The notes beneath the pieces were generated by a model, which worked only from the letters and a program-made list of their open reading frames with translations, did no database searches and had not been told where the DNA came from. A stretch of 64,000 bases of DNA from an uncultured Thermoleophilia bacterium (lineage in GTDB: Bacteria > Actinomycetota > Thermoleophilia > UBA2241), in assembly GCA_963741075.1 (NCBI GenBank), contig CAVUGS010000019.1, forward strand, positions 157,313 to 221,312, read 5' to 3'. How positions within the stretch are numbered: position 1 is the stretch's first letter; the number at the start of each line of letters is the position of its first letter. The position numbers were made by a program, and so were the translations under genes. Of the stretch, positions 52,032 to 64,000 are shown piece by piece.

Positions 52032-52314
52032 ATGATCTCCGAAGACGACGTCCGCTACGTCGCGAAACTCGCCCGTCTCCGCATAGAGCAGGACGAGGCG
52101 GCGCGCATGACCGGCGAGCTGGCCAAGATCCTCGCGCACGTCGACAAGATGAGCGAGCTGGACATGGCCGACGTGCCGCCGACGGCGCACGTCCTCGACG
52201 TCGTCAACGTCACGCGCGAGGACAAGGAGCGCCCCGAGCCTTCCGCGCGACGAGGCCCTGCGCAACGCCCCCGCCGTGAGCGACGACTGCTTCCGTGTCC
52301 CGAGGATGGGCTGA
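52032..52314 (+). CDS. gatC: Glu/Asp-tRNA amidotransferase subunit C, 1 frame shift near 52245
   Basis: The N-terminus is [22 protein letters not shown]. The C-terminal [24 protein letters not shown] lies in the shifted frame. TGA lies at 52312-52314. Confidence 0.85.
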
Positions 52315-52315
52315 G

Positions 52316-53848
52316 GTGACGACGCTCGATCCGCTGCGCCTCACCGCGCGCGAGGCCAAACGGCTGCTCGTGGACGGGGAGGTCTCCGCCGCCGAGCTGA
52401 CCAAGGTGTACCTGGACCAGATCGCCGCGGTCGAGAGCAAGGTGCGCGCCTACATCCTCCACACGCCGGACAACGCGGCCAAGTACTCGACCAAGGTCGA
52501 CCGCGAGATGCAGGCGATGCGCGGCCCGCTGGCGGGCCTGCCCATCGCCGTCAAGGACAACATGGTCACCGAGGGCGTCACCACCACGTGCGCCTCGAGG
52601 ATCCTCCACAACTACCAGCCGGTCTACACCGCCACCGCGGTCCGCCAGGTGTGGGAGGACCACGTGGTCATGCTGGGCAAGACCAACCTGGACGAGTTCG
52701 CCATGGGCTCCAGCACCGAGAACTCGGCCTACCAGGTCACGGCCAACCCGTGGGACCTCAGCACCGTGCCCGGCGGCAGCAGCGGCGGCTCCGCCGCCGC
52801 CGTGGCCGCCGGCGAGGCGCTCTGGGCGCTGGGCAGCGACACCGGCGGCTCCATCCGCCAGCCGGCGGCGCTCTGCGGCATCGTCGGCATGAAGCCCACG
52901 TACGGCGCCGTCAGCCGCTACGGGCTCATCGCCTTCGCCAGCTCGCTGGACCAGATCGGCCCGCTCACGCGCTCCGTGTACGACTGCGCGCTCCTGCTGC
53001 AGCACCTCGTCGGCCGCGACCCGCGGGACGCCACCAGCGTGGAGCTGCCCGAGCCGATCGCGCTGCCCTCCGCCGAGCGGCTCGACGGGCTGCGCATCGG
53101 CGTGCCGTCCGAGTACCTCGCCGTCGGCATCGAGCCGGGCGTGCGCGCGCGCTTCGACGAGACGCTCGCGCGCGTCGAGGAGCTCGGCGGCACCTGCGTC
53201 GAGATCAGCCTGCCGCACACCGAGTACGCGCTGCCGGCGTACTACATCATCGCGCCGGCCGAGGCCTCGGCGAACCTCGCGCGCTTCGACGGCGTGCGCT
53301 ACGGCTACCGCTGCGCCGAACCGGCCGACCTGCTCGACCTGTACGAGCGCACGCGCGGCGAGGGCTTCGGCCCGGAGGTCAAGCGCCGCATCATGATCGG
53401 CACCTACGCGCTCTCCGCCGGCTACTACGACGCCTACTACGGGCGCGCCCAGAAGGTCCGCACCCTGGTGCGCCGCGACTTCGACGCGGCGTTCGCCGAC
53501 GTCGACCTGATCGCGTCCCCGACGTCGCCCACGGTGGCCTTCAAGGCCGGCTCGCGGACCGACGACCCGCTGGCCATGTACATGAGCGACATCTGCACCA
53601 TCCCGGCCAACCTCGCCGGGCTGCCCGCCGATCAGCATCCCCTGCGGGCTCAGCGACGGCCTGCCGGTGGGCTTCCAGCTCATCGGCCCGGCGTTCAGCG
53701 AGAACCGCATGCTCGAGGCCGCGCACGCGCTCGAGGGGGCGATCGGGTTCGACACGGCGCCGGCGTTCGCCGACTCGTCTCTGCGCGGTCCGGGCTGGAA
53801 CCAGACCGGCGAGAGCCGGTCTACCACCCGGAGGACGCACAGTCATGA
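52316..53848 (+). CDS. gatA: Glu/Asp-tRNA amidotransferase subunit A, 1-2 frame shifts near 53630; 3' end ambiguous
   Basis: The amidase signature [27 protein letters not shown] is present, along with [15 protein letters not shown] stop at 53846-53848 would give an ATGA overlap with gatB if a second indel is assumed. Confidence 0.85.
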
Positions 53849-55355
53849 ATGGCCGCCGCAGGCAAGCCATCGACGGGAGCGCCGGAGGTGCACCCGTCAG
53901 TAGCCGCTGGGAGCCGGTCATCGGCCTCGAGATGCACGTCGAGCTCGACACGCAGACCAAGATGTTCTGCGGCTGCGCCGTCACCAAGGGCGACGACCCC
54001 AACACGCACACCTGCCCGGTGTGCCTGGCGCACCCCGGCGCGCTGCCCGTGGTCAACAGGCGCGCCGTCGAGTACGCCGCGCGCATCGCCCTGGCGCTCG
54101 ACTGCACCGTGCAGCCGCGCAACATCTTCCACCGCAAGAACTACTTCTATCCGGACCTGCCCAAGGCGTACCAGATCAGCCAGTACGACGCGCCCCTGGC
54201 CACGGCCGGCCGGTTCGAGTACTGGGTGGACGGCGAGCTCCTCAGCTGCCGCATCAACCGGGTGCACATGGAGGAGGACGCCGCCAAGCTCGTCCACGCC
54301 GGCGGGGACACCGGCCGCATCGCCGGGTCCGACTACTCCATGGTCGACTTCAACCGCGGCGGCACGCCGCTCATCGAGATCGTCACCGAGCCGGACATCC
54401 CGTCGCCGGAGGCGGCGCGCGAGTTCCTTCAGCAGCTGCGCAACCTCGTCGTCGAGCTGGGCGTGAGCGAGTGCAACATGGAGGAGGGCCAGATCCGCTG
54501 GGACGCCAACATCAGCGTCCGGCCCCGGGGGAGCGAGGAGCTCGGCACGCGCACCGAGCTCAAGAACATGAACAGCTTCCGCTACCTGCAGCAGGCGCTC
54601 GACGCGGAGATCCCGCGGCAGATCGAGGTCCTCGAGGGCGGCGGCACGATCGACCTGGAGACGCTGCACTTCGACCCCGACACGGGCACGACGACGCCGC
54701 TGCGCAGCAAGGAAGAGGCGCACGACTACCGCTACTTCCCCGAGCCGGACCTCGTGCCCCTCGAGATCGACCCCGGCGTGGGTCTCGGAGCTGCGCGCGA
54801 CGCAGCCGGAGCTGCCGGCGGCGCGCGTGGAGCGTTTCATCTCCGACTACGGACTCTCGCGCGCCGACGCCGCCGTGCTCGGCTCGTCGGGCGCGCTCGC
54901 CGCGCTTCTACGAGGAGGTCGTGGCGGCCGGGGCCGGCGCCAAGCCGGCGGCCAACTGGACGATGGGCGAGTACCTCGCCCACCTCAACGCCGCCGGCCT
55001 CGAGGCCGGCCACGGCCACGTCACCGCCGAGCGCCTCGCCAAGCTCGTGCGGCTCGTCGAGGACGGCACCGTCTCGACGAGCGCCGGCAAGGACGTCTTC
55101 GCGAAGATGATCGAGGAGCGTGCGGAGCCCGAGGCGATCGTCGAGAAGCACGGCCTCGGCCAGATCAGCGACACCTCGGAGCTCGAAGCGCTCGTCGCCG
55201 AGGTCGTCGCCGCCAATCCCGCCCAGGTCGAGCAGTACCGCGGCGGCAAGCAGCAGGTCATCGGCTTCTTCGTCGGCCAGGTGATGAAGGCCAGCGGCGG
55301 GCGCGCCAACCCGCAGGTCGTGAACGACCTGCTGCGGCGCGCCCTCGACGCGTGA
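53845..55355 (+). CDS. gatB: Glu/Asp-tRNA amidotransferase subunit B, 2 frame shifts
   Basis: Matching segments include [50 protein letters not shown] and [11 protein letters not shown]. The C-terminal GatB/YqeY domain has [17 protein letters not shown]. Confidence 0.85.
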
Positions 55356-55401: not shown

Positions 55402-56635
55402 ATGACCAGCGATCTGTCCAGCTTCGTCATCGCTCCGCGGACCCGCCCGGCCGAGCCGGCCGTCCGCATCGACGACACCACCCTGCGCGACGGCGAGCAG
55501 ACCGCCGGCGTCGTGTTCAGCAACCACGAGAAGATCCGCATCGCCAAGCTGCTCGACGAGGTGGGCGTCCACCAGATCGAGGTCGGCATCCCGGCCATGG
55601 GCGGCGACGAGAAGAAGACCATCGCCGAGATCGTCGAGCTCGGCCTCGACACCTCCATCCTCGCCTGGAACCGGGCCGTCGTCGACGACATCCAGCACTC
55701 GATCGACTGCGGCGTCGACGCCGTGGCCATCAGCATGTCGGCGAGCGACATCCACATCGAGCACAAGCTCGCCGAAGTCGCGCCAGTGGGTGCTCGACCA
55801 GATCCGCGAGTGCGTGGCGTTCGCCAAGGACCAGAACCTGTACGTCTCGGTCAACGCCGAGGACGCCTCGCGCGCCGACCTCGAGTTCCTGCTGCGCTTC
55901 GGCCAGGCGGCCAAGGAGGAGGGCGCCGACCGCCTCCGCTTCTGCGACACGCTCGGCATCCTCGACCCGTTCGACACCTACAACGTGATCTCGTTCCTCA
56001 AGAAGGAGGGCGGGCTCGACATCGAGATGCACACGCACGACGACTTCGGCATGGCGACGGCCAACGCGCTGGCGGGCATCAAGGCCGGCGCCACCTACGT
56101 CAACACCACCGTCAACGGCCTCGGCGAGCGCGCGGGCAACGCCGCGCTCGAGGAGGTCGTGATGGCGCTCAAGTACCTCGGCAAGGTCGACGTCGGGCCT
56201 GCACACGAGCCGCTTCCGCGAGCTCAGCGAGTACGTCGCCGCCGCGTCGGCGCGCACCATCCCGGCGTGGAAGAGCATCGTGGGCACCAACGTGTTCGCC
56301 CACGAGAGCGGCATCCACGCCGACGGCGTCATCAAGAACCCGCTCAACTACGAGGCGTTCGCGCCCGAGGACGTGGGGCTGGAGCGCCAGATCGTGGTCG
56401 GCAAGCACTCCGGCTCGCGCACCATCTACCGCAAGTTCCAGGAGTTCGGGCTCGAGCTCACCCAGGAGGACTGCGACGGCGTGCTCGCGCTCGTGCGCAA
56501 GACGGCGGTGGAGCTCAAGCGGGCGCTGTTCGACAAGGAGCTCATGTACATCTACCAGGACTACCTCGGGCACCTCGGCGACGCCGTGCCGATGGGCACG
56601 CCGGGCGAGGCGTCGGCGCGCGTCCGGAGCGCTGA
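55402..56635 (+). CDS. Homocitrate synthase / Re-citrate synthase / short isopropylmalate-synthase-family enzyme (no LeuA regulatory domain), 2 frame shifts; 3' end unresolved
   Basis: Matching segments include IDDTTLRDGEQ, IEVGIPAMG, EMHTHDDFGMATANALAGIKAGATYVNTTVNGLGERAGNAALEEV and FAHESGIHADG. Confidence 0.75.
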
Positions 56636-57893
56636 GACGCCGCCACCCTCGCCGAGAAGCTCCTGGCGGCGCACGCCGGGCTCGAGTCCGTCGTTCCCGG
56701 CCAGATCGTGGTCTGCGACGTGGACGTCGCGATCGCCCAGGACGGCACCGGCCCGCTCGCCATCACAGCAGATCGAGGAGCTGGGCGCGGAGCGCGTCAA
56801 GGCGCCGGAGTGCGTGTTCTTCATCGACCACGCCGCGCCGGCGCCGCGCAGCGAGCTCGCCAACGCGCAGAAGACGATCAGGGCCTTCTGCGCGGAGTCC
56901 GGCGCGACCCTGAGCGACATCGAGATGGGCGTGTGCCACCAGCGCGTCGCCGAGAGCTACGCCAAGCCCGGCGACCTCGTCATCGGCGCCGACTCGCACA
57001 CCTGCATGGCCGGCGCCCTGGGGGCGTTCGCCACCGGCATGGGCAGCACCGACGTCGCCGTGGGCATGGCCAGCGGCAAGACCTGGCTGCGCGTGCCCGA
57101 GACGTTCCGCATCGAGGTCGAGGGCGCCTTCGCCGACGGCGTCGAGGCCAAGGACCTGATGCTCACGCTCATCGGGCAGCTGGGCGCCGACGGCGCCACG
57201 TACAAGGCGCTCGAGTTCGGCGGGCCGGGCATCGACGCGATGCCCATGCCCGGCCGCCTGACGCTGAGCAACATGGCCGTCGAGGCCGGCGCCAAGTGCG
57301 GCCTCATGCCCAGCGACGAGACGACGAAGGCGTTCCTGGCGGCGCAGGGCCGCGAGGACGGACTGGCGGCCGCTCGCGGCCGACCCCGGCGCCGCCTACG
57401 AGCGCGTCGTGCCGTTCGACCTCGCGCGCCATCGTGCCGACGGTGGCGAAGCCGCACACCGTGGACAACACCGCGGCGGCGGCGGAGCTCGGCGGGCACC
57501 AGGGTGGACCAGGTGTTCATCGGCACCTGCACCAACGGCCGCCTCGAGGACCTGCGCTCGGCGGCGCGCATCCTGCGCGGGCGCCGCCGCGCCCCGGGCA
57601 CGCGCCTCATCGTGACGCCGGCCTCGCAGGCCACGGCGCGCGCAGCCGCGGCCGAGGGCCTGTTCGAGGTGTTCTGGGACGCCGGCGCCGTCATCACCAA
57701 TCCCAGCTGCGGCGCCTGCGTCGGCATCCACGACGGCATCCTCGCCGACGGCGAGGTGTGCATCAGCACCGCCAACCGCAACTTCCACGGCCGCATGGGC
57801 AACCCTGAGGCTTCCATCTACCTGGGCTCGCCGGCCACCGCGGCCGCTTCGGCCGTGGCCGGCGAGATCACCGATCCCCGCGAGTTCCTCTAG
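56592..57893 (+). CDS. Aconitase-family large subunit (LeuC/HacA type), about 3 frame shifts; start uncertain
   Basis: Matching segments include [67 protein letters not shown] and [12 protein letters not shown] lies at 57891-57893. Confidence 0.8.
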
Positions 57894-57906
57894 AAAGGAG
57901 GACGCT

Positions 57907-58428
57907 GTGGCCAAGCAGTACAGCGCTCCGCCGGAGATGGTCATCGACCCGAGCAAGCGCTACACGGCGACCATCAGCACCGACAACGGCGACATCGTCA
58001 TCGAGCTGTTCGCCGACAAGGCGCCGCGCACCGTCAACAACTTCGTCTTTCTCGCCCGTGAGGGCTACTACGACGGCGTCACGTTCCACCGCGTCATCAA
58101 GGGCTTCATGGCCCAGGGCGGCGACCCCACGGGGAGCGGCAGCGGCGGTCCGGGCTACAAGTTCGCCGACGAGTTCCACCCGGCGCTCAAGCACGACGGC
58201 GCCGGCATCCTCTCGATGGCCAATGCCGGGCCGGGCACCAACGGCTCGCAGTTCTTCATCACCTACGGCGCGACGCCCCACCTCGACGGCAGGCACACCG
58301 TGTTCGGCAGGGTGATCGAGGGCATGGACGTCGTCGAGGCGATCCCGGAGCGCGACCCCATGCGGGCGCGCGAGCCGGGCATCGCCATGAACTCGGTGGT
58401 GATCACCGAGGAGGAGTGGGTCACGTGA
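57907..58428 (+). CDS. Cyclophilin-type peptidyl-prolyl cis-trans isomerase, intact
   Basis: Matching segments are [31 protein letters not shown] and [16 protein letters not shown]. The GTG start follows aaaggagg. Confidence 0.9.
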
Positions 58429-58973
58429 ATGCGTCGAGCTGGAGCCGGAGGCACCGCTCGCGAGCTCGCGGCCGGGCCTGGCTGTTCGGCGACGACATCA
58501 GCACCGACCACATCGCGCCCGGCCGTCTGTTCCACCTGCGCACCAACATGCCCGAGCTGGCCAAGCACGTCCTCGAGGACGCGCGTCCCGAGTTCGCCGG
58601 CGAGATGCGCCCAGGCGACTTCGTCGTGGGCGGCCGCAACTTCGGCCTCGGCTCGAGCCGCGAGCACGCGCCGCGCATCATCAAGATCGCCGGGGTAGGG
58701 GCGGTGCTGGCGCAGAGCTTCGCGCGCATCTTCTTCCGCAACGCCATCAACGTCGGCCTGCCGGTGCTGCAGTGCGACACCAGCGGCATCGGCGAGCAGG
58801 ACGAGCTCGAGGTGGACCTGGAGGCCGGTGAGGTCAGGGACCTGACCACCGGCGCCGTCATCCCCTTCGTCCCGCTCCCGCCGGTGATGGTGACCATCCT
58901 GAACGACGGCGGCCTCGTCGCCCACGTCAAGAAGCACGGCGGCTTCGCGCTGCCGGGAGGACCTGAAGCATGA
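58425..58973 (+). CDS. Aconitase-family small subunit (LeuD/HacB type) with an HLRT substrate loop
   Basis: Matching segments are [40 protein letters not shown] and [15 protein letters not shown]. The GTG start overlaps the upstream stop as GTGA. Confidence 0.8.
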
Positions 58974-59975
58974 CCTACACCGTGACCCTGATCCCCGGCG
59001 ACGGCACCGGCCCCGAGCTGGCCGCCGCGCTCGAGACCGTCATCGCCGCCACCGGCGTGCCCATCCTCTGGGAGGTGCACGACGCCGGGCTCGACGTGAT
59101 GGAGGAGTACGGCACGCCGCTGCCGGAGCACGTGCTCGAGTCGATCCGCCGCACCAAGGTGGCGATCAAGGGTCCGATCACGACGCCGGTCGGCAAGGGC
59201 TTCCGCAGCGTCAACGTGGCGCTGCGCAAGGAGCTCGACCTGTACGCCTGCCTGCGCCCCTCCAAGACGATGAAGGGCGTGCGCACCCGCTTCGACGACA
59301 TCGACCTCGTCGTCGTGCGCGAGAACACCGAGGACCTCTACGCCGGCATCGAGCACATGGTCACGGACGACGCCGCCGAGAGCATCAAGATCATCACGCG
59401 CCGCGGGACCGAGCGCATCGTGCGCTTCGCCTTCGAGTACGCGCGCAAGCACGGCCGCCGCAAGGTCACCGCCGTGCACAAGGCCAACATCATGAAGTGC
59501 ACCGACGGGCTCTTCCTGCGCGTCGCCGGCGAGGTCGCCGAGCGGCTACCCCGACATCGAGTTCGAGGACCGCATCGTCGACAACATGTGCATGCAGCTG
59601 GTGCAGAAGCCGGAGCTGTACGACGTGCTCGTGCTGCCCAACCTGTACGGCGACATCGTGAGCGACCTGTGCGCCGGGCTCATCGGCGGCCTCGGCGTGG
59701 CGCCCGGCGCCAACATCGGCGACGACGCCGCCGTGTTCGAGCCCGTGCACGGCAGCGCGCCCAAGTACGCCGGCCAGGACAAGGTGAACCCCACGGCGCT
59801 GCTCCGCTCCGGCGTGCTGCTGCTCGACCACCTCGGCGAGGCCGAGGCGGCGCGGCGCATGGAAGGCGCCATCGCCGCCGTCATCGCCGAGGGCAAGGAC
59901 GTCACCTACGACCTCGGCGGCTCGGCCGGCACCTCCGGCATGGCCGCCGCCATCGCCCGCCGCATCGCCGGCTGA
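58970..59975 (+). CDS. Isocitrate/homoisocitrate/isopropylmalate dehydrogenase-family enzyme (copy 1), 1 frame shift near 59545
   Basis: Matching segments are [63 protein letters not shown] and FEPVHGSAP. The ATG overlaps the upstream stop as ATGA. Confidence 0.85.
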
Positions 59976-59991
59976 GGCAAGGAGGCTCGTC

Positions 59992-60387
59992 ATGGAAGAG
60001 GAGGAACGCCACATCAACCTGCACGCCACGCCGGAGATGATGGCGGGCGTGTACGCCAACTTCGCCAACGTGAGCCACTCCGACTACGAGTTCTCGATCA
60101 CCTTCGTGCGCCTCGACCACGAGAGCGAGGAGGGCGGCGAGCTGAACGGCGTCGTCGTGAGCCGCGTGAACCTCTCGGCGCGGTTCATGAAGGAGCTCGT
60201 CGACGCCATGAACGACAACTACGGCAAGTGGCTGCAGGCGGAGAACATCAAGAACCTGCCCGTGCGGCCGACGGATGCGGAGTACGAGCGCGTGGTGCGC
60301 GTTCGACTAGGTAAAAGTCGTGCAGATGGTGGCGAAACCGCACACGGTGGACAACAAGGCGACGGCGGCGGAGCTCAACGGCACTAA
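59992..60387 (+). CDS. DUF3467-family protein (copy 1) whose 3' end is replaced at the duplication junction by out-of-frame leuC-derived sequence
   Basis: Residues up to ..QAENIKNLP match copy 2 (62883-63191). From about 60259 the ORF reads into leuC-like DNA ([11 protein letters not shown]...). Confidence 0.6.
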
Positions 60388-60778
60388 GGTCGACCAGGTG
60401 CTCATCGGCACCTGCACGAACGGGCGCCTCGAGGACCTGCGCGCGGCGGCGCGTGTGCTGCGCGGGCGCCGCCGCGCCCCGGGCACGCGCCTCATCGTGA
60501 CGCCGGCCTCGCAGGCCACGGCGCGCGCAGCCGCGGCCGAGGGCCTGTTCGAAGTGTTCTGGGACGCCGGCGCCGTCATCACCAATCCCGCCTGCGGCGC
60601 CTGCGTCGGCATCCACGAGGGCATCCTCGCCGACGGCGACGTGTGCATCAGCACCGCCAACCGCAACTTCCACGGCCGCATGGGCAACCCTGAGGCCTCC
60701 ATCTACCTGGGCTCGCCGGCCACCGCGGCCGCTTCGGCCGTGGCCGGCGAGATCACCGATCCGCGCGAGCTCCTCTAG
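60263..60778 (+). pseudogene. 5'-truncated leuC-like fragment (C-terminal ~170 residues only) created by the duplication
   Basis: An in-frame TAG lies at about 60308, where copy 1 has CTC. Downstream, ORF 60320-60778 encodes [30 protein letters not shown]. The about 270 N-terminal residues are absent. Confidence 0.75.
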
Positions 60779-60791
60779 AAAGGAGGACGCT

Positions 60792-61302
<511 letters not shown>

Positions 61303-61313
<11 letters not shown>

Positions 61314-61865
61314 GGTCGCGGAGCTGTCGAGCGGGGCACCGGAGCTCCGTGAGAGCTCCGCGGCCGGGCCTGGCTGTTCGGCGACGACATCAGCACCGAC
61401 CACATCGCGCCCGGCCGTCTGTTCCACCTGCGCACCAACATGCCGGAGCTGGCCAAGCACGTGCTCGAGGACGCGCGTCCCGAGTTCGCCGGCGAGATGC
61501 GCCCAGGCGACTTCGTCGTGGGCGGCCGCAACTTCGGCCTCGGCTCGAGCCGCGAGCACGCACCGCGCATCATCAAGATCGCCGGGGTAGGGGCGGTGCT
61601 GGCGCAGAGCTTCGCGCGCATCTTCTTCCGCAACGCCATCAACGTCGGCCTGCCGGTGCTGCAGTGCGACACCAGCGGCATCGGCGAGCAGGACGAGCTC
61701 GAGGTGGACCTGGAGGCCGGTGAGGTCAGGGACAGGACCACCGGCGCCGTCATCCCCTTCGTCCCGCTCCCGCCGGTGATGGTGACCATCCTGAACGACG
61801 GCGGCCTCGTCGCCCACGTCAAGAAGCACGGCGGCTTCGCGCTGCCGGGAGGACCTGAAGCATGA
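61303..61865 (+). CDS. Aconitase-family small subunit (copy 2); the 5' end is disturbed by a 7-nt length difference from copy 1
   Basis: From [15 protein letters not shown] to the stop it is identical to copy 1 except for one residue (RDRTTG vs RDLTTG). ORF 61440-61865 covers the 3' part. Confidence 0.7.
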
Positions 61866-62866
61866 CCTACACCGTGACCCTGATCCCCGGCGACGGCACC
61901 GGCCCCGAGCTGGCCGCCGCGCTCGAGACCGTCATCGCCGCCACCGGCGTGCCCATCCACTGGGAGGTGCACGACGCCGGGCTCGACGTGATGGAGGAGT
62001 ACGGCACGCCGCTGCCGGAGCACGTGCTCGAGTCGATCCGCCGCACCAAGGTGGCGATCAAGGGGCCGATCACGACGCCGGTCGGCAAGGGCTTCCGCAG
62101 CGTCAACGTGGCGCTGCGCAAGGAGCTCGACCTGTACGCCTGCCTGCGCCCCTCCAAGACGATGAAGGGCGTGCGCACGCGCTTCGACGACATCGACCTC
62201 GTCGTCGTGCGCGAGAACACCGAGGACCTGTACGCCGGCATCGAGCACAAGGTCACGGACGACGCCGCCGAGAGCATCAAGATCATCACGCGCCGCGGGA
62301 CGGAGCGCATCGTGCGCTTCGCCTTCGAGTACGCGCGCAAGCACGGCCGGCGCAAGGTCACCGCCGTGCACAAGGCCAACATCATGAAGTGCACCGACGG
62401 GCTCTTCCTGCGCGTCGCCGGCGAGGTCGCCGAGCAGTACCCCGACATCGAGTTCGAGGACCGCATCGTCGACAACATGTGCATGCAGCTGGTGCAGAAG
62501 CCGGAGCTGTACGACGTGCTGGTGCTGCCCAACCTGTACGGCGACATCCTGAGCGACCTCTGCGCCGGGCTCGTCGGCGGCCTGGGCGTGGCGCCGGGCG
62601 CCAACATCGGCGACGACGGCGCCGTGTTCGAGCCGGTGCACGGCAGCGCGCCCAAGTACGACGGGCAGGACAAGGTCAACCCCACGGCGCTGATCCTCTC
62701 CGGCGTGCTGATGCTCGAGCACCTCGGCGAGGCCGAGGCGGCGCGGCGGATGGAAGGCGCCATCGCCGCCGTCATCGCCGAGGGCAAGGACGTCACGTAC
62801 GACCTCGGCGGCTCGGCCGGGACCTCCGGCATGGCCGCCGCCATCGCCCGCCGCATCGCCGGCTGA
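61862..62866 (+). CDS. Isocitrate/homoisocitrate/isopropylmalate dehydrogenase-family enzyme (copy 2), intact
   Basis: A single 334-aa ORF that differs from copy 1 at about a dozen residues (e.g. IHW vs ILW, YDGQ vs YAGQ). Confidence 0.9.
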
Positions 62867-62882
62867 GGCAAGGAGGCTCCTC

Positions 62883-63191
62883 ATGGAAGAGGACGAACGG
62901 CACATCAACCTGCACGCCACGCCGGAGATGATGGCGGGCGTGTACGCCAACTTCGCCAACGTGAGCCACTCCGACTACGAGTTCTCGATCACCTTCGTGC
63001 GCCTCGACCACGAGAGCGAGGAGCCCGAAGAGCTGAACGGCGTCGTGGTCAGCCGCGTGAACCTCTCCGCGCGGTTCATGAAGGAGCTGGTCGACGCCAT
63101 GAGCGACAACTACGGCAAGTGGCTGCAGGCGGAGAACATCAAGAACCTCCCCGAGGCCCCCGGGCACGATCAGCCGGCGGAGCCGAGCTGA
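62883..63191 (+). CDS. DUF3467-family protein (copy 2), intact
   Basis: The 102-aa ORF has [46 protein letters not shown]. Confidence 0.7.
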
Positions 63192-63375: not shown

Positions 63376-63405
63376 TTGCCGCCCCGCCCCCGGGTCGGCT
63401 AGAAT
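63376..63405 (+). promoter_or_regulatory. Candidate promoter TTGCCG-N18-TAGAAT ahead of the oxidoreductase gene
   Basis: ttgccg lies at 63376-63381 and tagaat at 63400-63405. Confidence 0.35.
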
Positions 63406-63510
63406 GGCTGGGCCTGTACTCCCACGTTCCTCTTGGTCTCACGCTGGAGCCGCGTGCGGTCCGCCGGGGGGGAACGGTGGCGATCCCGTCGCACGTCTCA
63501 GGAGGACGCA

Positions 63511-64000
63511 GTGGACTTCTACCAGGGCAAGGTGCTCAGGCTCGACCTGAGCGCGGGCGCCTCTACCGTCGAGCCGCTCAACATGGAGTGGGCAGAGCGC
63601 TACATCGGCGGCAAGGGCCTGCTTCTTCGCTACATGTGGGACGAGGTCCCGCGCAACGTCGACCCGTGGGCGCCGGAGAACCCGGTCATCCTCATGACCG
63701 GCCCGTTCGCCGGCACCAACGTCAGCACCGCCTCGCGCCTGGTGGTGGGCTGCAAGAGCCCCCAGACCGGCATCCTGAACGACAGCTACGTGGGCGGCTC
63801 GTTCGCCCCCGAGCTCAAGTTCGCCGGCTACGACGCGGTCATCATCACCGGCGAGTCGCCCGAGCCGGTCGTCGTCACCATCAAGGACGACGTCGTCAGC
63901 TTCGTGCCGGCCAAGCCCAAGTACTGGGGCATGAAGACGTCGGAGATCGAGGAGGCCATGCGCCAGGACTTCGACGCCGACGCCAAGACGCTGTCCATCG
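63511..64000 (+). CDS. Aldehyde:ferredoxin oxidoreductase (tungsten/molybdenum AOR family), N-terminal part; runs off the window
   Basis: The GTG start at 63511 follows aggagg. Matching segments include GKVLRLDLSAG, AERYIGGKGLLLRYMWDEV, VILMTGPFAGT, RLVVGCKSPQTG and ELKFAGYDAVIITG. Confidence 0.8.
   Translation, partial: MDFYQGKVLRLDLSAGASTVEPLNMEWAERYIGGKGLLLRYMWDEVPRNVDPWAPENPVILMTGPFAGTNVSTASRLVVGCKSPQTGILNDSYVGGSFAPELKFAGYDAVIITGESPEPVVVTIKDDVVSFVPAKPKYWGMKTSEIEEAMRQDFDADAKTLSI

Follow-up and report, generated by a model that had tools for sequence, protein, structure and literature searches.

In Clostridium acetobutylicum, a Re-citrate synthase, an aconitase and an isocitrate dehydrogenase are said, reportedly in work by Amador-Noguez and colleagues from 2010, to be encoded in one cluster (CAC0970-0972). 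NifV-like Re-citrate synthases, annotated as homocitrate synthases, are known from Dehalococcoides, Thermoanaerobacter, Clostridioides and Heliomicrobium (PMC12016533). Here we describe a gene cluster in a 64,000-nucleotide stretch of DNA (the window) from an uncultured Thermoleophilia bacterium that probably makes 2-oxoglutarate from acetyl-CoA and oxaloacetate through a NifV-like Re-citrate synthase, an aconitase of two subunits and an isocitrate dehydrogenase of the NADP type. Other anaerobes are known to use this route, so it is not a new pathway; the cluster most likely represents the known route, its odd part being an embedded cyclophilin gene.

Domain search of the window confirmed the gene inventory and order given in a first-pass annotation, with all genes on the forward strand. 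A NifV-like short synthase of ~410 residues, the predicted Re-citrate synthase (55396-~56635), is followed by an aconitase-family large subunit of the archaeal HacA/LeuC type, predicted to belong to an aconitase (~56636-57893), an intact cyclophilin-type peptidyl-prolyl isomerase of 173 residues (57907-58428; PF00160 Pro_isomerase, E 2.7e-52), the small dehydratase subunit (58425-58973; Aconitase_C; LEUD_arch 179 bits, with HacB2-like models also matching), a first copy of an isocitrate dehydrogenase of the short 334-residue type (58970-59975; Iso_dh) and a first copy of a DUF3467 gene (59992-60387; PF11950, E 4e-13). The cluster is tightly packed and lies directly downstream of gatCAB. As previously noted, the GTG start of the small subunit overlaps the cyclophilin stop codon as GTGA (58425-58428), and GTGA or ATGA is present in most species of the genus; the dehydrogenase ATG (58970) overlaps the small-subunit stop, and in the closest relative the synthase stop overlaps the large-subunit start. 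A further 20 genomes of the genus have the identical gene order, in single copy, so the arrangement is not due to chance.

The position of the cyclophilin gene between the large and small dehydratase subunit genes, already remarked on in the first-pass annotation, is a genus-specific insertion. It is the sole cyclophilin gene in 22 of the 24 genomes of the genus, always within this operon. Its link to the dehydratase is positional only, and it most likely encodes a general foldase carried along as a passenger. DUF3467 had been described as closing the operon; here it is simply the gene that follows downstream, but outside the genus it is independent of the operon, lying elsewhere in sister families.

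Several reading frames of the cluster are broken. The synthase occupies three frames in this assembly, with a shift close to each of positions 55770 and 56195 and a further one towards its end; at least three frameshifts disrupt the large subunit, one at ~56766 and two between ~57340 and ~57500; and the first dehydrogenase copy has a single-base shift at 59546. All three genes are intact in relatives. In addition, 57397-60262 is repeated head-to-tail at 60283-63153 as a 2.9-kb unit, and the 3' end of the first DUF3467 gene enters the junction at 60262/60283; the interval marked in the first-pass annotation ends at 60258, the end of the first copy. The second copy, also on the forward strand, comprises a C-terminal fragment of the large subunit (60320-60778), a frameshifted cyclophilin gene (60792-~61303), the small subunit (~61311-61865), an intact dehydrogenase (61862-62866) and DUF3467 (62883-63191). 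The two copies share 95.6% identity over 2880 aligned columns with 23 gaps, and their differences are mosaic and biased to codon position 3.

Such damage might indicate a decaying locus, in which the frameshifts are real, this strain is losing the operon and the duplication is a true rearrangement. The number of frame breaks, the complementary damage in the two copies and the loss of the synthase-dehydratase block in two genus members (G004 and G010) are consistent with decay. We nevertheless consider it unlikely, because gatB and the leu cluster of this assembly are frame-broken as well, other long-contig metagenome-assembled genomes (MAGs) of the genus show similar breaks at other places, the breaks between the copies are all single-base indels, and the extra base at the frameshift site 56767 is missing from the contigs of relatives. 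Moreover, marker completeness is 66.9% for this 3.3-Mb assembly as against 90-98% in similar-sized relatives, and the genome was found to hold no classical citrate synthase that could replace the broken one, an absence that at this completeness rests mainly on the relatives. The frameshifts in the window are thus most likely assembly errors. No other genome of the genus was found to have a second copy, and the duplication, too, probably arose during assembly.

The synthase consists of an HMGL-like and an HCS_D2 domain, and domain search revealed no LeuA_dimer domain, in agreement with its earlier description as a short NifV-type enzyme devoid of the LeuA regulatory domain. Its three pieces scored 148, 212 and 138 bits against TIGR02660. 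The intact ortholog, 95% identical, reached 525 bits against the NCBIfam nifV_homocitr equivalog (cut-off 462.9), so that sequence alone cannot tell citrate from homocitrate activity; the best solved structure is the homocitrate synthase 6KTQ (240 bits). In a maximum-likelihood tree the protein falls, far from LeuA and CimA, within the NifV-like superclade, in a subclade of 17 rows (support 98/96) from Thermoleophilia, other Actinomycetota, Coriobacteriia, Eubacteriales, Pelotomaculum, Syntrophomonas, Methanomassiliicoccaceae and Chloroflexota/Dehalococcoidia. Large- and small-subunit genes lie directly 3' of the synthase in 12 of these 17 sampled members, and several of the clusters continue with a dehydrogenase 54-73% identical to that of the window. 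Stand-alone synthases of the clade adjoin housekeeping genes, not nif genes, and in one Dehalococcoidia genome the synthase stands alone, the large-subunit, small-subunit and dehydrogenase genes being clustered apart from it. The nif-neighboured NifV genes of Raoultella, Dechloromonas and Geopsychrobacteraceae branch outside the clade; genes of Nostoc also branch outside it. Judging from this context and from the relatives in Dehalococcoidia MAGs, the window synthase would be akin to the characterised Re-citrate synthases.

The dehydratase reaches subfamily-level models only. Its large subunit matches PF00330, exceeds the cut-offs solely of the subfamily models PRK00402 and hacA_fam, passes no equivalog model, and displays the cluster-ligand motifs GTCTNG and CGAC. 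The small subunit contains a GSSREHA motif and, as proposed earlier, the substrate-recognition loop FHLRT. This loop reads FHLRT, YKFK[TS] or YLRS in 13 of 13 small subunits linked to the synthase clade or its dehydrogenase (12 synthase-linked and one from the dehydratase-dehydrogenase cluster of the Dehalococcoidia genome), and YLNT, YLAI, WLSL or similar in all seven short-type subunits that accompany synthases of other types; an arginine or lysine is therefore present in 13/13 versus 0/7, and the residue discriminates in this clade. The loop is YLRT in the methanogen homoaconitase subunit 2PKP and YLVYT in the isopropylmalate/citramalate isomerase subunit 3VBA. Since the arginine is shared with homoaconitase, it argues against isopropylmalate, not against homocitrate.

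The dehydrogenase was analyzed at the residue level on the intact second copy. Relative to E. coli Icd it retains S113, N115, R119, R129, R153, Y160, K230, D283, D307, D311, K344, Y345 and Y391, residues that in Icd bind isocitrate and the 2'-phosphate of NADP. A 30-residue block cited in the first-pass annotation as typical of NAD-isocitrate/homoisocitrate enzymes is present, but the NAD-type assignment was not upheld: the protein has the NADP-type pair Lys344/Tyr345 instead of the NAD-type Asp/Ile. Among solved structures it scored 414-319 bits with isocitrate dehydrogenases, 277 with homoisocitrate dehydrogenase and 247 with isopropylmalate dehydrogenase. It falls narrowly under the curated isocitrate dehydrogenase cut-offs (449 versus 510 and 422.4 versus 432.4 bits), and scored 207 bits against the leuB model (cut-off 353). 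Orthologs with 73% identity also occur in two genomes (G027 and G032) beside a classical citrate synthase and AcnA, and there would act on citrate-derived isocitrate. In a dual-use reading of the module, all three enzymes would accept citrate-series and homocitrate-series substrates alike, supplying 2-oxoglutarate and meeting a minor need for 2-oxoadipate. The placement of the synthase inside the NifV-like superclade, a loop arginine that suits either tricarboxylate, and the promiscuity of Thermus homocitrate synthase, which accepts oxaloacetate, would allow such dual use. It is nonetheless improbable, as the dehydrogenase equals Icd at each substrate-binding position checked and no consumer of 2-oxoadipate was identified.

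Among 41 related genomes, hardly any has both the synthase and the classical citrate synthase, or lacks both: 25 contain the synthase ortholog only, 14 Pfam Citrate_synt only, one both (G007) and one neither (G005, an assembly of 610 contigs in which the other genes of the operon are present). Large-subunit orthologs are confined, among the related genomes searched, to the genus and one family (f6), in neither of which an AcnA-type gene was found. The complementarity is not perfectly tidy, because G004 and G010, which have a classical citrate synthase, contain no aconitase-family gene except leuC. The lysA gene of the diaminopimelate route is present with a score above its cut-off, and neither lysW nor nifH was found here or in four relatives, whose completeness reaches 100%.

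This pattern weighs on the other reading offered at first pass, a homocitrate module in which acetyl-CoA and 2-oxoglutarate would be converted through homoaconitase and homoisocitrate dehydrogenase to 2-oxoadipate, for α-aminoadipate lysine synthesis or other 2-oxoacid elongation. We regard it as improbable. The equivalog score of the ortholog, the match to 6KTQ and the resemblance of the loop to YLRT all fit homocitrate, and the HacB2 and AksF2 model scores are high, yet sub-threshold. Against it, the dehydrogenase keeps the equivalents of Ser113 and Asn115, matches isocitrate far better than homoisocitrate dehydrogenases and has orthologs beside citrate synthase and AcnA; a lysine or cofactor pathway, moreover, offers no reason for the complementarity of the two synthases. 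Re-citrate synthesis leading to 2-oxoglutarate is thus favoured over homocitrate by the isocitrate-type residues, by the complementarity to Si-citrate synthase, and by the presence of lysA where lysW and nifH were not found.

A second leucine/isoleucine pathway through isopropylmalate or citramalate, suggested by enzyme families and an order as in leuA-leuCD-leuB, is close to refuted by a complete leuA(long)-leuC-leuD-leuB-ilvE-cimA cluster on another contig (C5), the LeuA of which passes the leuA_bact equivalog in G007, by the domain content and tree position of the synthase, by a basic rather than hydrophobic loop, and by the dehydrogenase scores (207 bits for leuB, 449 for isocitrate dehydrogenase). 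The separate leucine gene set, the tree position and the discriminating loop residue together support the earlier proposal of a tricarboxylate pathway starting from a NifV/Re-citrate-type synthase.

In the favoured Re-citrate route, the cluster would form the oxidative branch of an incomplete TCA cycle, providing 2-oxoglutarate, and through it glutamate, to an anaerobe presumably lacking both classical citrate synthase and monomeric aconitase. The NifV-like synthase would condense acetyl-CoA and oxaloacetate to citrate, with the Re-face stereochemistry expected from its family; the heterodimeric Fe-S dehydratase would convert citrate via cis-aconitate to isocitrate, the basic loop residue of its small subunit probably holding the extra carboxylate; and the short isocitrate dehydrogenase would decarboxylate isocitrate oxidatively to 2-oxoglutarate, probably with NADP+. 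We infer the substrates, stereochemistry and cofactor of the three enzymes from domain content, conserved residues, gene order, phylogenetic placement and phyletic patterns, which were observed directly.

With the NifV homocitrate synthase (TIGR02660) the window synthase shares fold and domain pair, its ortholog lying above the curated cut-off, and it is 50-55% identical to sampled proteobacterial and cyanobacterial NifV-clade genes; it differs in having no nif neighbours, in a genome where nifH was not found, and in falling within a distinct clade of strong support, in which the synthases are linked to genes for aconitase and isocitrate dehydrogenase. The dehydratase resembles methanogen homoaconitase HacAB (MJ1003/MJ1271; 2PKP) as an archaeal-type heterodimer with L-R-T in the recognition loop, a basic residue for the extra carboxylate, but its subunits score below the HacA_Meth and HacB cut-offs, the partner dehydrogenase is isocitrate-type, and the predicted substrate is citrate/cis-aconitate, not the homo-series. 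The dehydrogenase keeps every substrate-binding residue of E. coli Icd together with Lys344/Tyr345, whereas in length it resembles the short isocitrate dehydrogenases (6LKY, 6LTF, IDH3 alpha), its best matches being enzymes of 335-340 residues; it thus combines a short chain without the Icd inserts with the NADP-type pair, while 6LKY, the best structural match, has the NAD-type Asp/Ile at these positions of the alignment.

As a whole, the cluster shares with CAC0970-0972 of C. acetobutylicum the three-step logic, the clustering of the genes and an anaerobic host with a split TCA cycle. There, a C. kluyveri-type synthase is combined with a single-polypeptide aconitase; here, a NifV-like synthase accompanies an aconitase whose two subunits, one HacA/LeuC-like and one HacB/LeuD-like, are encoded on either side of a cyclophilin gene. 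Likened by family and context, the synthase is closest to the NifV-like (type II) Re-citrate synthases of Dehalococcoides mccartyi CBDB1, Thermoanaerobacter X514, Clostridioides difficile and Heliomicrobium modesticaldum (HM1_2993; PMC12016533), which are likewise short HMGL-like proteins annotated as homocitrate synthases and come from strict anaerobes without Si-citrate synthase, as the present host would be. The clade of the window synthase itself holds Dehalococcoidia and Chloroflexota sequences; the present system differs in that its host belongs to the Thermoleophilia (Actinomycetota) and that a single operon holds the whole set of pathway genes.

The operon comprises six genes on the forward strand: a NifV-like synthase (55396 to ~56635), an aconitase-family large subunit (~56636–57893), a cyclophilin (57907–58428), a LeuD/HacB-type small subunit (58425–58973), an Iso_dh dehydrogenase (58970–59975) and a DUF3467 gene starting at 59992. 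In 20 further genomes of the host's genus the genes keep this order and occur once, and the motifs and the GTGA overlap quoted in the first-pass annotation were both found in the sequence. Judged from sequence, we consider it likely that the cluster encodes a Re-citrate synthase, a split aconitase and an NADP-dependent isocitrate dehydrogenase, which in this order would provide a route to 2-oxoglutarate. For the predicted Re-citrate synthase, the use of oxaloacetate and the addition of the acetyl group to the Re face are putative.

The window lies on contig C19, and the names given publicly to nearly identical proteins assign the host to the class Thermoleophilia. In the 3.3-Mb assembly (29 contigs, 70% G+C), three different frames are needed to read the synthase, the large subunit contains at least three frame shifts, and the first dehydrogenase copy is shifted at 59546; gatB, upstream of the operon, and a leu cluster on another contig (C5) are frame-broken likewise. 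Marker completeness is 66.9% versus 90–98% in similar-sized relatives. Breaks of this kind, at other positions, occur in several further long-contig MAGs of the genus, and the contigs of relatives do not contain the extra base at 56767, one of the break sites. We read these breaks as consensus errors, and the analyses were performed with intact orthologs (88–95% identity) or with the intact second dehydrogenase copy. This second copy belongs to a head-to-tail repeat of 2.9 kb, in which 57397–60262 recurs at 60283–63153 with 95.6% identity and 23 gap columns; the genus's other genomes all lack the duplication. The two copies differ in a mosaic fashion, two 200-nt bins containing 35 substitutions apiece and other stretches being ~99% identical; every difference that breaks the frame is a single-base indel. 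The differences favour third codon positions, also within the truncated large-subunit fragment (7/6/14), which cannot be functional; the divergence therefore arose in full-length genes. The duplication resembles a tandem join of two strain haplotypes made during assembly, which fits better than an old in-place duplication. No public read run contained more than 26% of the words sampled from the junction, and the junction was bridged by none of the 100–360-bp contigs, which came from relatives present in metagenomes of soil and wetland. Frame-broken genes and tandem repeats in long-read MAGs of this kind should not be taken as biology without the reads.

Pfam searches with an intact synthase ortholog yielded HMGL-like (276 bits) and HCS_D2 (90 bits) but no LeuA_dimer, and the pieces in the window match the same models, which bears out the earlier description of a short enzyme devoid of the LeuA regulatory domain. 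A 95%-identical ortholog passes the equivalog model TIGR02660 (nifV_homocitr) with 525.2 bits at a cut-off of 462.9, and annotation pipelines therefore label the protein a homocitrate synthase; the window pieces total ~499 bits on this model. Phylogenetic placement, suggested as a check in the first-pass annotation, was carried out with a maximum-likelihood tree of 89 sequences, which comprise 80 named loci from a scan of the genome collection and the host's own LeuA and CimA among others but do not include the proven Re-citrate synthases CbdbA1708 and HM1_2993. The window synthase falls into a 17-row clade (support 98/96) within the NifV-like superclade (100/100), a clade that takes in Dehalococcoidia and Chloroflexota MAG sequences. 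The genes for both dehydratase subunits directly follow the synthase in 12 of the 17 members, several of which also have a dehydrogenase 54–73% identical to that of the window; the 12 belong to Thermoleophilia, an Actinomycetota MAG, two Coriobacteriia, an Eubacteriales MAG, Pelotomaculum, Syntrophomonas and a Methanomassiliicoccaceae archaeon. Housekeeping genes adjoin the synthases that stand alone (Chloroflexota, Dehalococcoidia and a Methanobacteriota archaeon); the Dehalococcoidia genome carries the large subunit, the small subunit (loop YLRS) and the dehydrogenase in a separate cluster. When the Dehalococcoidia synthase served as the seed of a homolog search, Dehalococcoides mccartyi was not represented among the top 120 matches.

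Two archaeal MAGs, of Methanomassiliicoccaceae and Methanobacteriota (L058 and L062), encode synthases with ~60% identity to the query, in one case with the large and small dehydratase subunit genes behind it. The nesting of these archaeal sequences among bacterial ones suggests transfer of the module between domains. A genome of the related family f4 (G037) contains two tandem NifV-like synthase paralogs, 60% and 56% identical to the query (L027, 10795–13423), with the dehydrogenase ortholog ~5 kb away; G037 possesses AcnA and lacks a classical citrate synthase.

The large dehydratase subunit displays the cluster-ligand motifs GTCTNG and C-G-A-C, with three Cys ligands for a 4Fe-4S cluster, and GLGSSREHA is present in the small subunit. 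When an ortholog was scored, subfamily models alone passed; no equivalog for aconitate hydratase, homoaconitase or isopropylmalate isomerase was assigned, all scores lying below the cut-offs (LEU2, 450/611; HacA_Meth, 423/550; PRK07229, 380/612). The recognition loop of the window small subunit, FHLRT, resembles YLRT of the solved homoaconitase subunit 2PKP and is unlike YLVYT of the isopropylmalate/citramalate isomerase subunit 3VBA. A basic loop residue occurs in 13 of 13 small subunits linked to the synthase clade or its dehydrogenase (FHLRT, YKFK[TS], YLRS) versus none of the seven short-type small subunits linked to other synthase types; the loop position, whose arginine had been proposed as a discriminator, thus behaves as one, and a basic residue there offers a practical marker of tricarboxylate-specific dehydratases. 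The loop is predicted to exclude a hydrophobic substrate, and citrate and homocitrate are not separable by it.

In E. coli isocitrate dehydrogenase (Icd), isocitrate is bound by S113, N115, R119, R129, R153, Y160, K230', D283', D307 and D311. In an alignment of Icd, the window protein and two orthologs, all of these residues are invariant, as are the NADP determinants K344, Y345 and Y391 (sequence APKY[AD]GQDKVNP). The NAD-type enzyme 6LKY has D-I where the window dehydrogenase has the equivalents of K344 and Y345. The block that the first-pass annotation had ascribed to NAD-isocitrate/homoisocitrate enzymes was found; the cofactor assignment did not stand, the Lys/Tyr pair being of the NADP type. 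These Icd-type Ser/Asn and Lys/Tyr residues provide a practical marker of the enzyme. Its best solved relatives are isocitrate dehydrogenases (414–319 bits), and although the NCBIfam isocitrate dehydrogenase equivalogs were narrowly missed (PRK08997, 449.3/510; mito_nad_idh, 422.4/432.4; PRK09222, 399.7/509), these models still rank first. Assignment as a homoisocitrate dehydrogenase, which the nifV_homocitr score of the synthase and the homoaconitase-like loop would accommodate, was rejected on the scores: AksF2_Meth gave 370 versus a cut-off of 540, and the Thermus homoisocitrate dehydrogenase 277 bits versus 414 for isocitrate dehydrogenase; isopropylmalate dehydrogenase scored 247.

An inventory of Si-citrate synthases, likewise proposed beforehand, revealed near mutual exclusion. 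Among 41 genomes (the host's own and 40 relatives, which are related and not independent samples), 25 contain only the synthase ortholog, 14 only Pfam Citrate_synt, one both (G007) and one neither (G005, a 610-contig assembly in which the rest of the operon is present). No PF00285 citrate synthase was found in the host's own genome, which is 66.9% complete. There are three or more instances of the switch between the NifV-like and the classical synthase: inside the genus, inside family f4 and from family to family. Large-subunit orthologs are confined to the genus and family f6, in neither of which an AcnA-type gene was detected; other families have AcnA. In two relatives (G027 and G032) the dehydrogenase ortholog occurs beside a classical citrate synthase and AcnA, and it therefore works on citrate-derived isocitrate there.

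Three genomes of ~2.5 Mb from the host's genus differ from this pattern. G007 has the operon together with a classical citrate synthase; G010 has a classical citrate synthase, the dehydrogenase and DUF3467 and lacks the synthase, dehydratase and cyclophilin; in G004 the whole block is gone. The series looks like a displacement caught midway. No aconitase-family gene except leuC was found in G004 and G010, both with a classical citrate synthase, so that the complementarity is not entirely tidy.

A homocitrate pathway would call for a consumer of its product. The gene lysA is present above its cut-off, and neither lysW nor nifH turned up in the host genome or in four relatives with a completeness of up to 100%; therefore no homocitrate consumer is evident. 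A carboxylate-specific pathway, put forward earlier as Re-citrate or homocitrate, is supported, and because of the dehydrogenase residues and the phyletic pattern, not the loop, citrate is favoured.

A NifV role in the synthesis of the nitrogenase FeMo-cofactor, to which the superclade and the TIGR02660 match might point, was rejected, as no nifH was found in the genome and no nif genes in the neighbourhood: the synthase is flanked by gatCAB, dehydratase and dehydrogenase genes, and only P-loop fragments match Fer4_NifH in the five genomes. Synthase genes with demonstrable nif neighbours all lie outside the 17-row clade (Raoultella, with nifN, nifU and a NifM-like rotamase; Dechloromonas, with a rotamase; Geopsychrobacteraceae, with a FeMo-cofactor-binding protein). 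A 2-isopropylmalate or citramalate synthase is ruled against by the missing LeuA_dimer, by a leuA_bact score of 283 bits versus a cut-off of 599 (LeuA of G007 passes this equivalog with 678) and by a second set on contig C5, where tblastn and family searches located a long leuA with regulatory domain, leuC, leuD (loop YLNT), leuB, ilvE and a cimA-type synthase, so that the earlier exclusion of leucine biosynthesis holds.

The cyclophilin lies between the dehydratase subunit genes, with the GTGA overlap, as had been described; each operon-bearing genome of the genus has one such gene, always in this position, and in most species its stop codon shares bases with a GTG or ATG in the reading frame of the small subunit. 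No cyclophilin was found in G004 and G010, which lack the synthase–dehydratase block, or in family f6, whose operon has no insertion; the remaining families encode between one and three cyclophilins at other loci. A role of the cyclophilin as a dedicated factor for the folding or assembly of a heterodimeric Fe-S aconitase, in which case the LeuCD/HacAB-type heterodimer would be a biochemically uncharacterised class of citrate-specific aconitase, would agree with a sole cyclophilin gene located between the subunit genes, with the stop/start overlap and with its absence from exactly the two genus members that lack the dehydratase. The joint loss amounts to one deletion of a contiguous block and is therefore no evidence of a functional tie, and we regard this role as very unlikely. 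In G016 (L024, 7891–8934), cyclophilin and small subunit form one 347-aa open frame with TGT for the TGA stop, probably a species-specific read-through or error. Fusion counterparts in the protein collection are singletons only (one PF00160+PF00694, two PF00160+PF00330). Such fusions were rejected as Rosetta-stone evidence, since other species have the stop codon, and were treated as sporadic or errors. The description of DUF3467 as closing the operon applies to this genus, in which it directly follows the dehydrogenase; families f4, f5 and f6 carry it at other places. Its AlphaFold model has a mean pLDDT of 46, and an Atlas search returned DUF3467 clusters only.

Upstream, gatC, gatA and gatB (52032–55355) are encoded on the same strand. 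The gatB stop is 40 nt ahead of the synthase start, a scan revealed no promoter- or terminator-like site between them, and in G007 and G016, too, gatB is the neighbour on the upstream side; co-transcription of the operon with gatCAB is therefore possible. Inside the operon, the scan gave nothing above shuffled expectation. The sole sigma-70-like match of the region (63376–63405) precedes an AFOR_N domain (aldehyde:ferredoxin oxidoreductase N-terminus; 63433–63999, E 8e-52), a downstream gene consistent with an anaerobic lifestyle.

Taken together, these assignments would correct the automatic names homocitrate synthase, isopropylmalate/homoaconitate dehydratase and generic dehydrogenase, under which Thermoleophilia of soil and wetland seem, in metabolic reconstructions, to have no route to 2-oxoglutarate. 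They would also extend the route through a NifV-like Re-citrate synthase to anaerobic Actinomycetota; sampled genomes of Bacillota, Coriobacteriia and Methanomassiliicoccaceae likewise contain an operon of synthase, split aconitase and dehydrogenase. The kind of pathway is already known, and what is new is the Thermoleophilia host, the split aconitase with its diagnostic loop and the embedded cyclophilin. In its naming, the window synthase parallels the NifV-like Re-citrate synthases of Dehalococcoides, Thermoanaerobacter, Clostridioides and Heliomicrobium, which were likewise mis-annotated as homocitrate synthase (PMC12016533).
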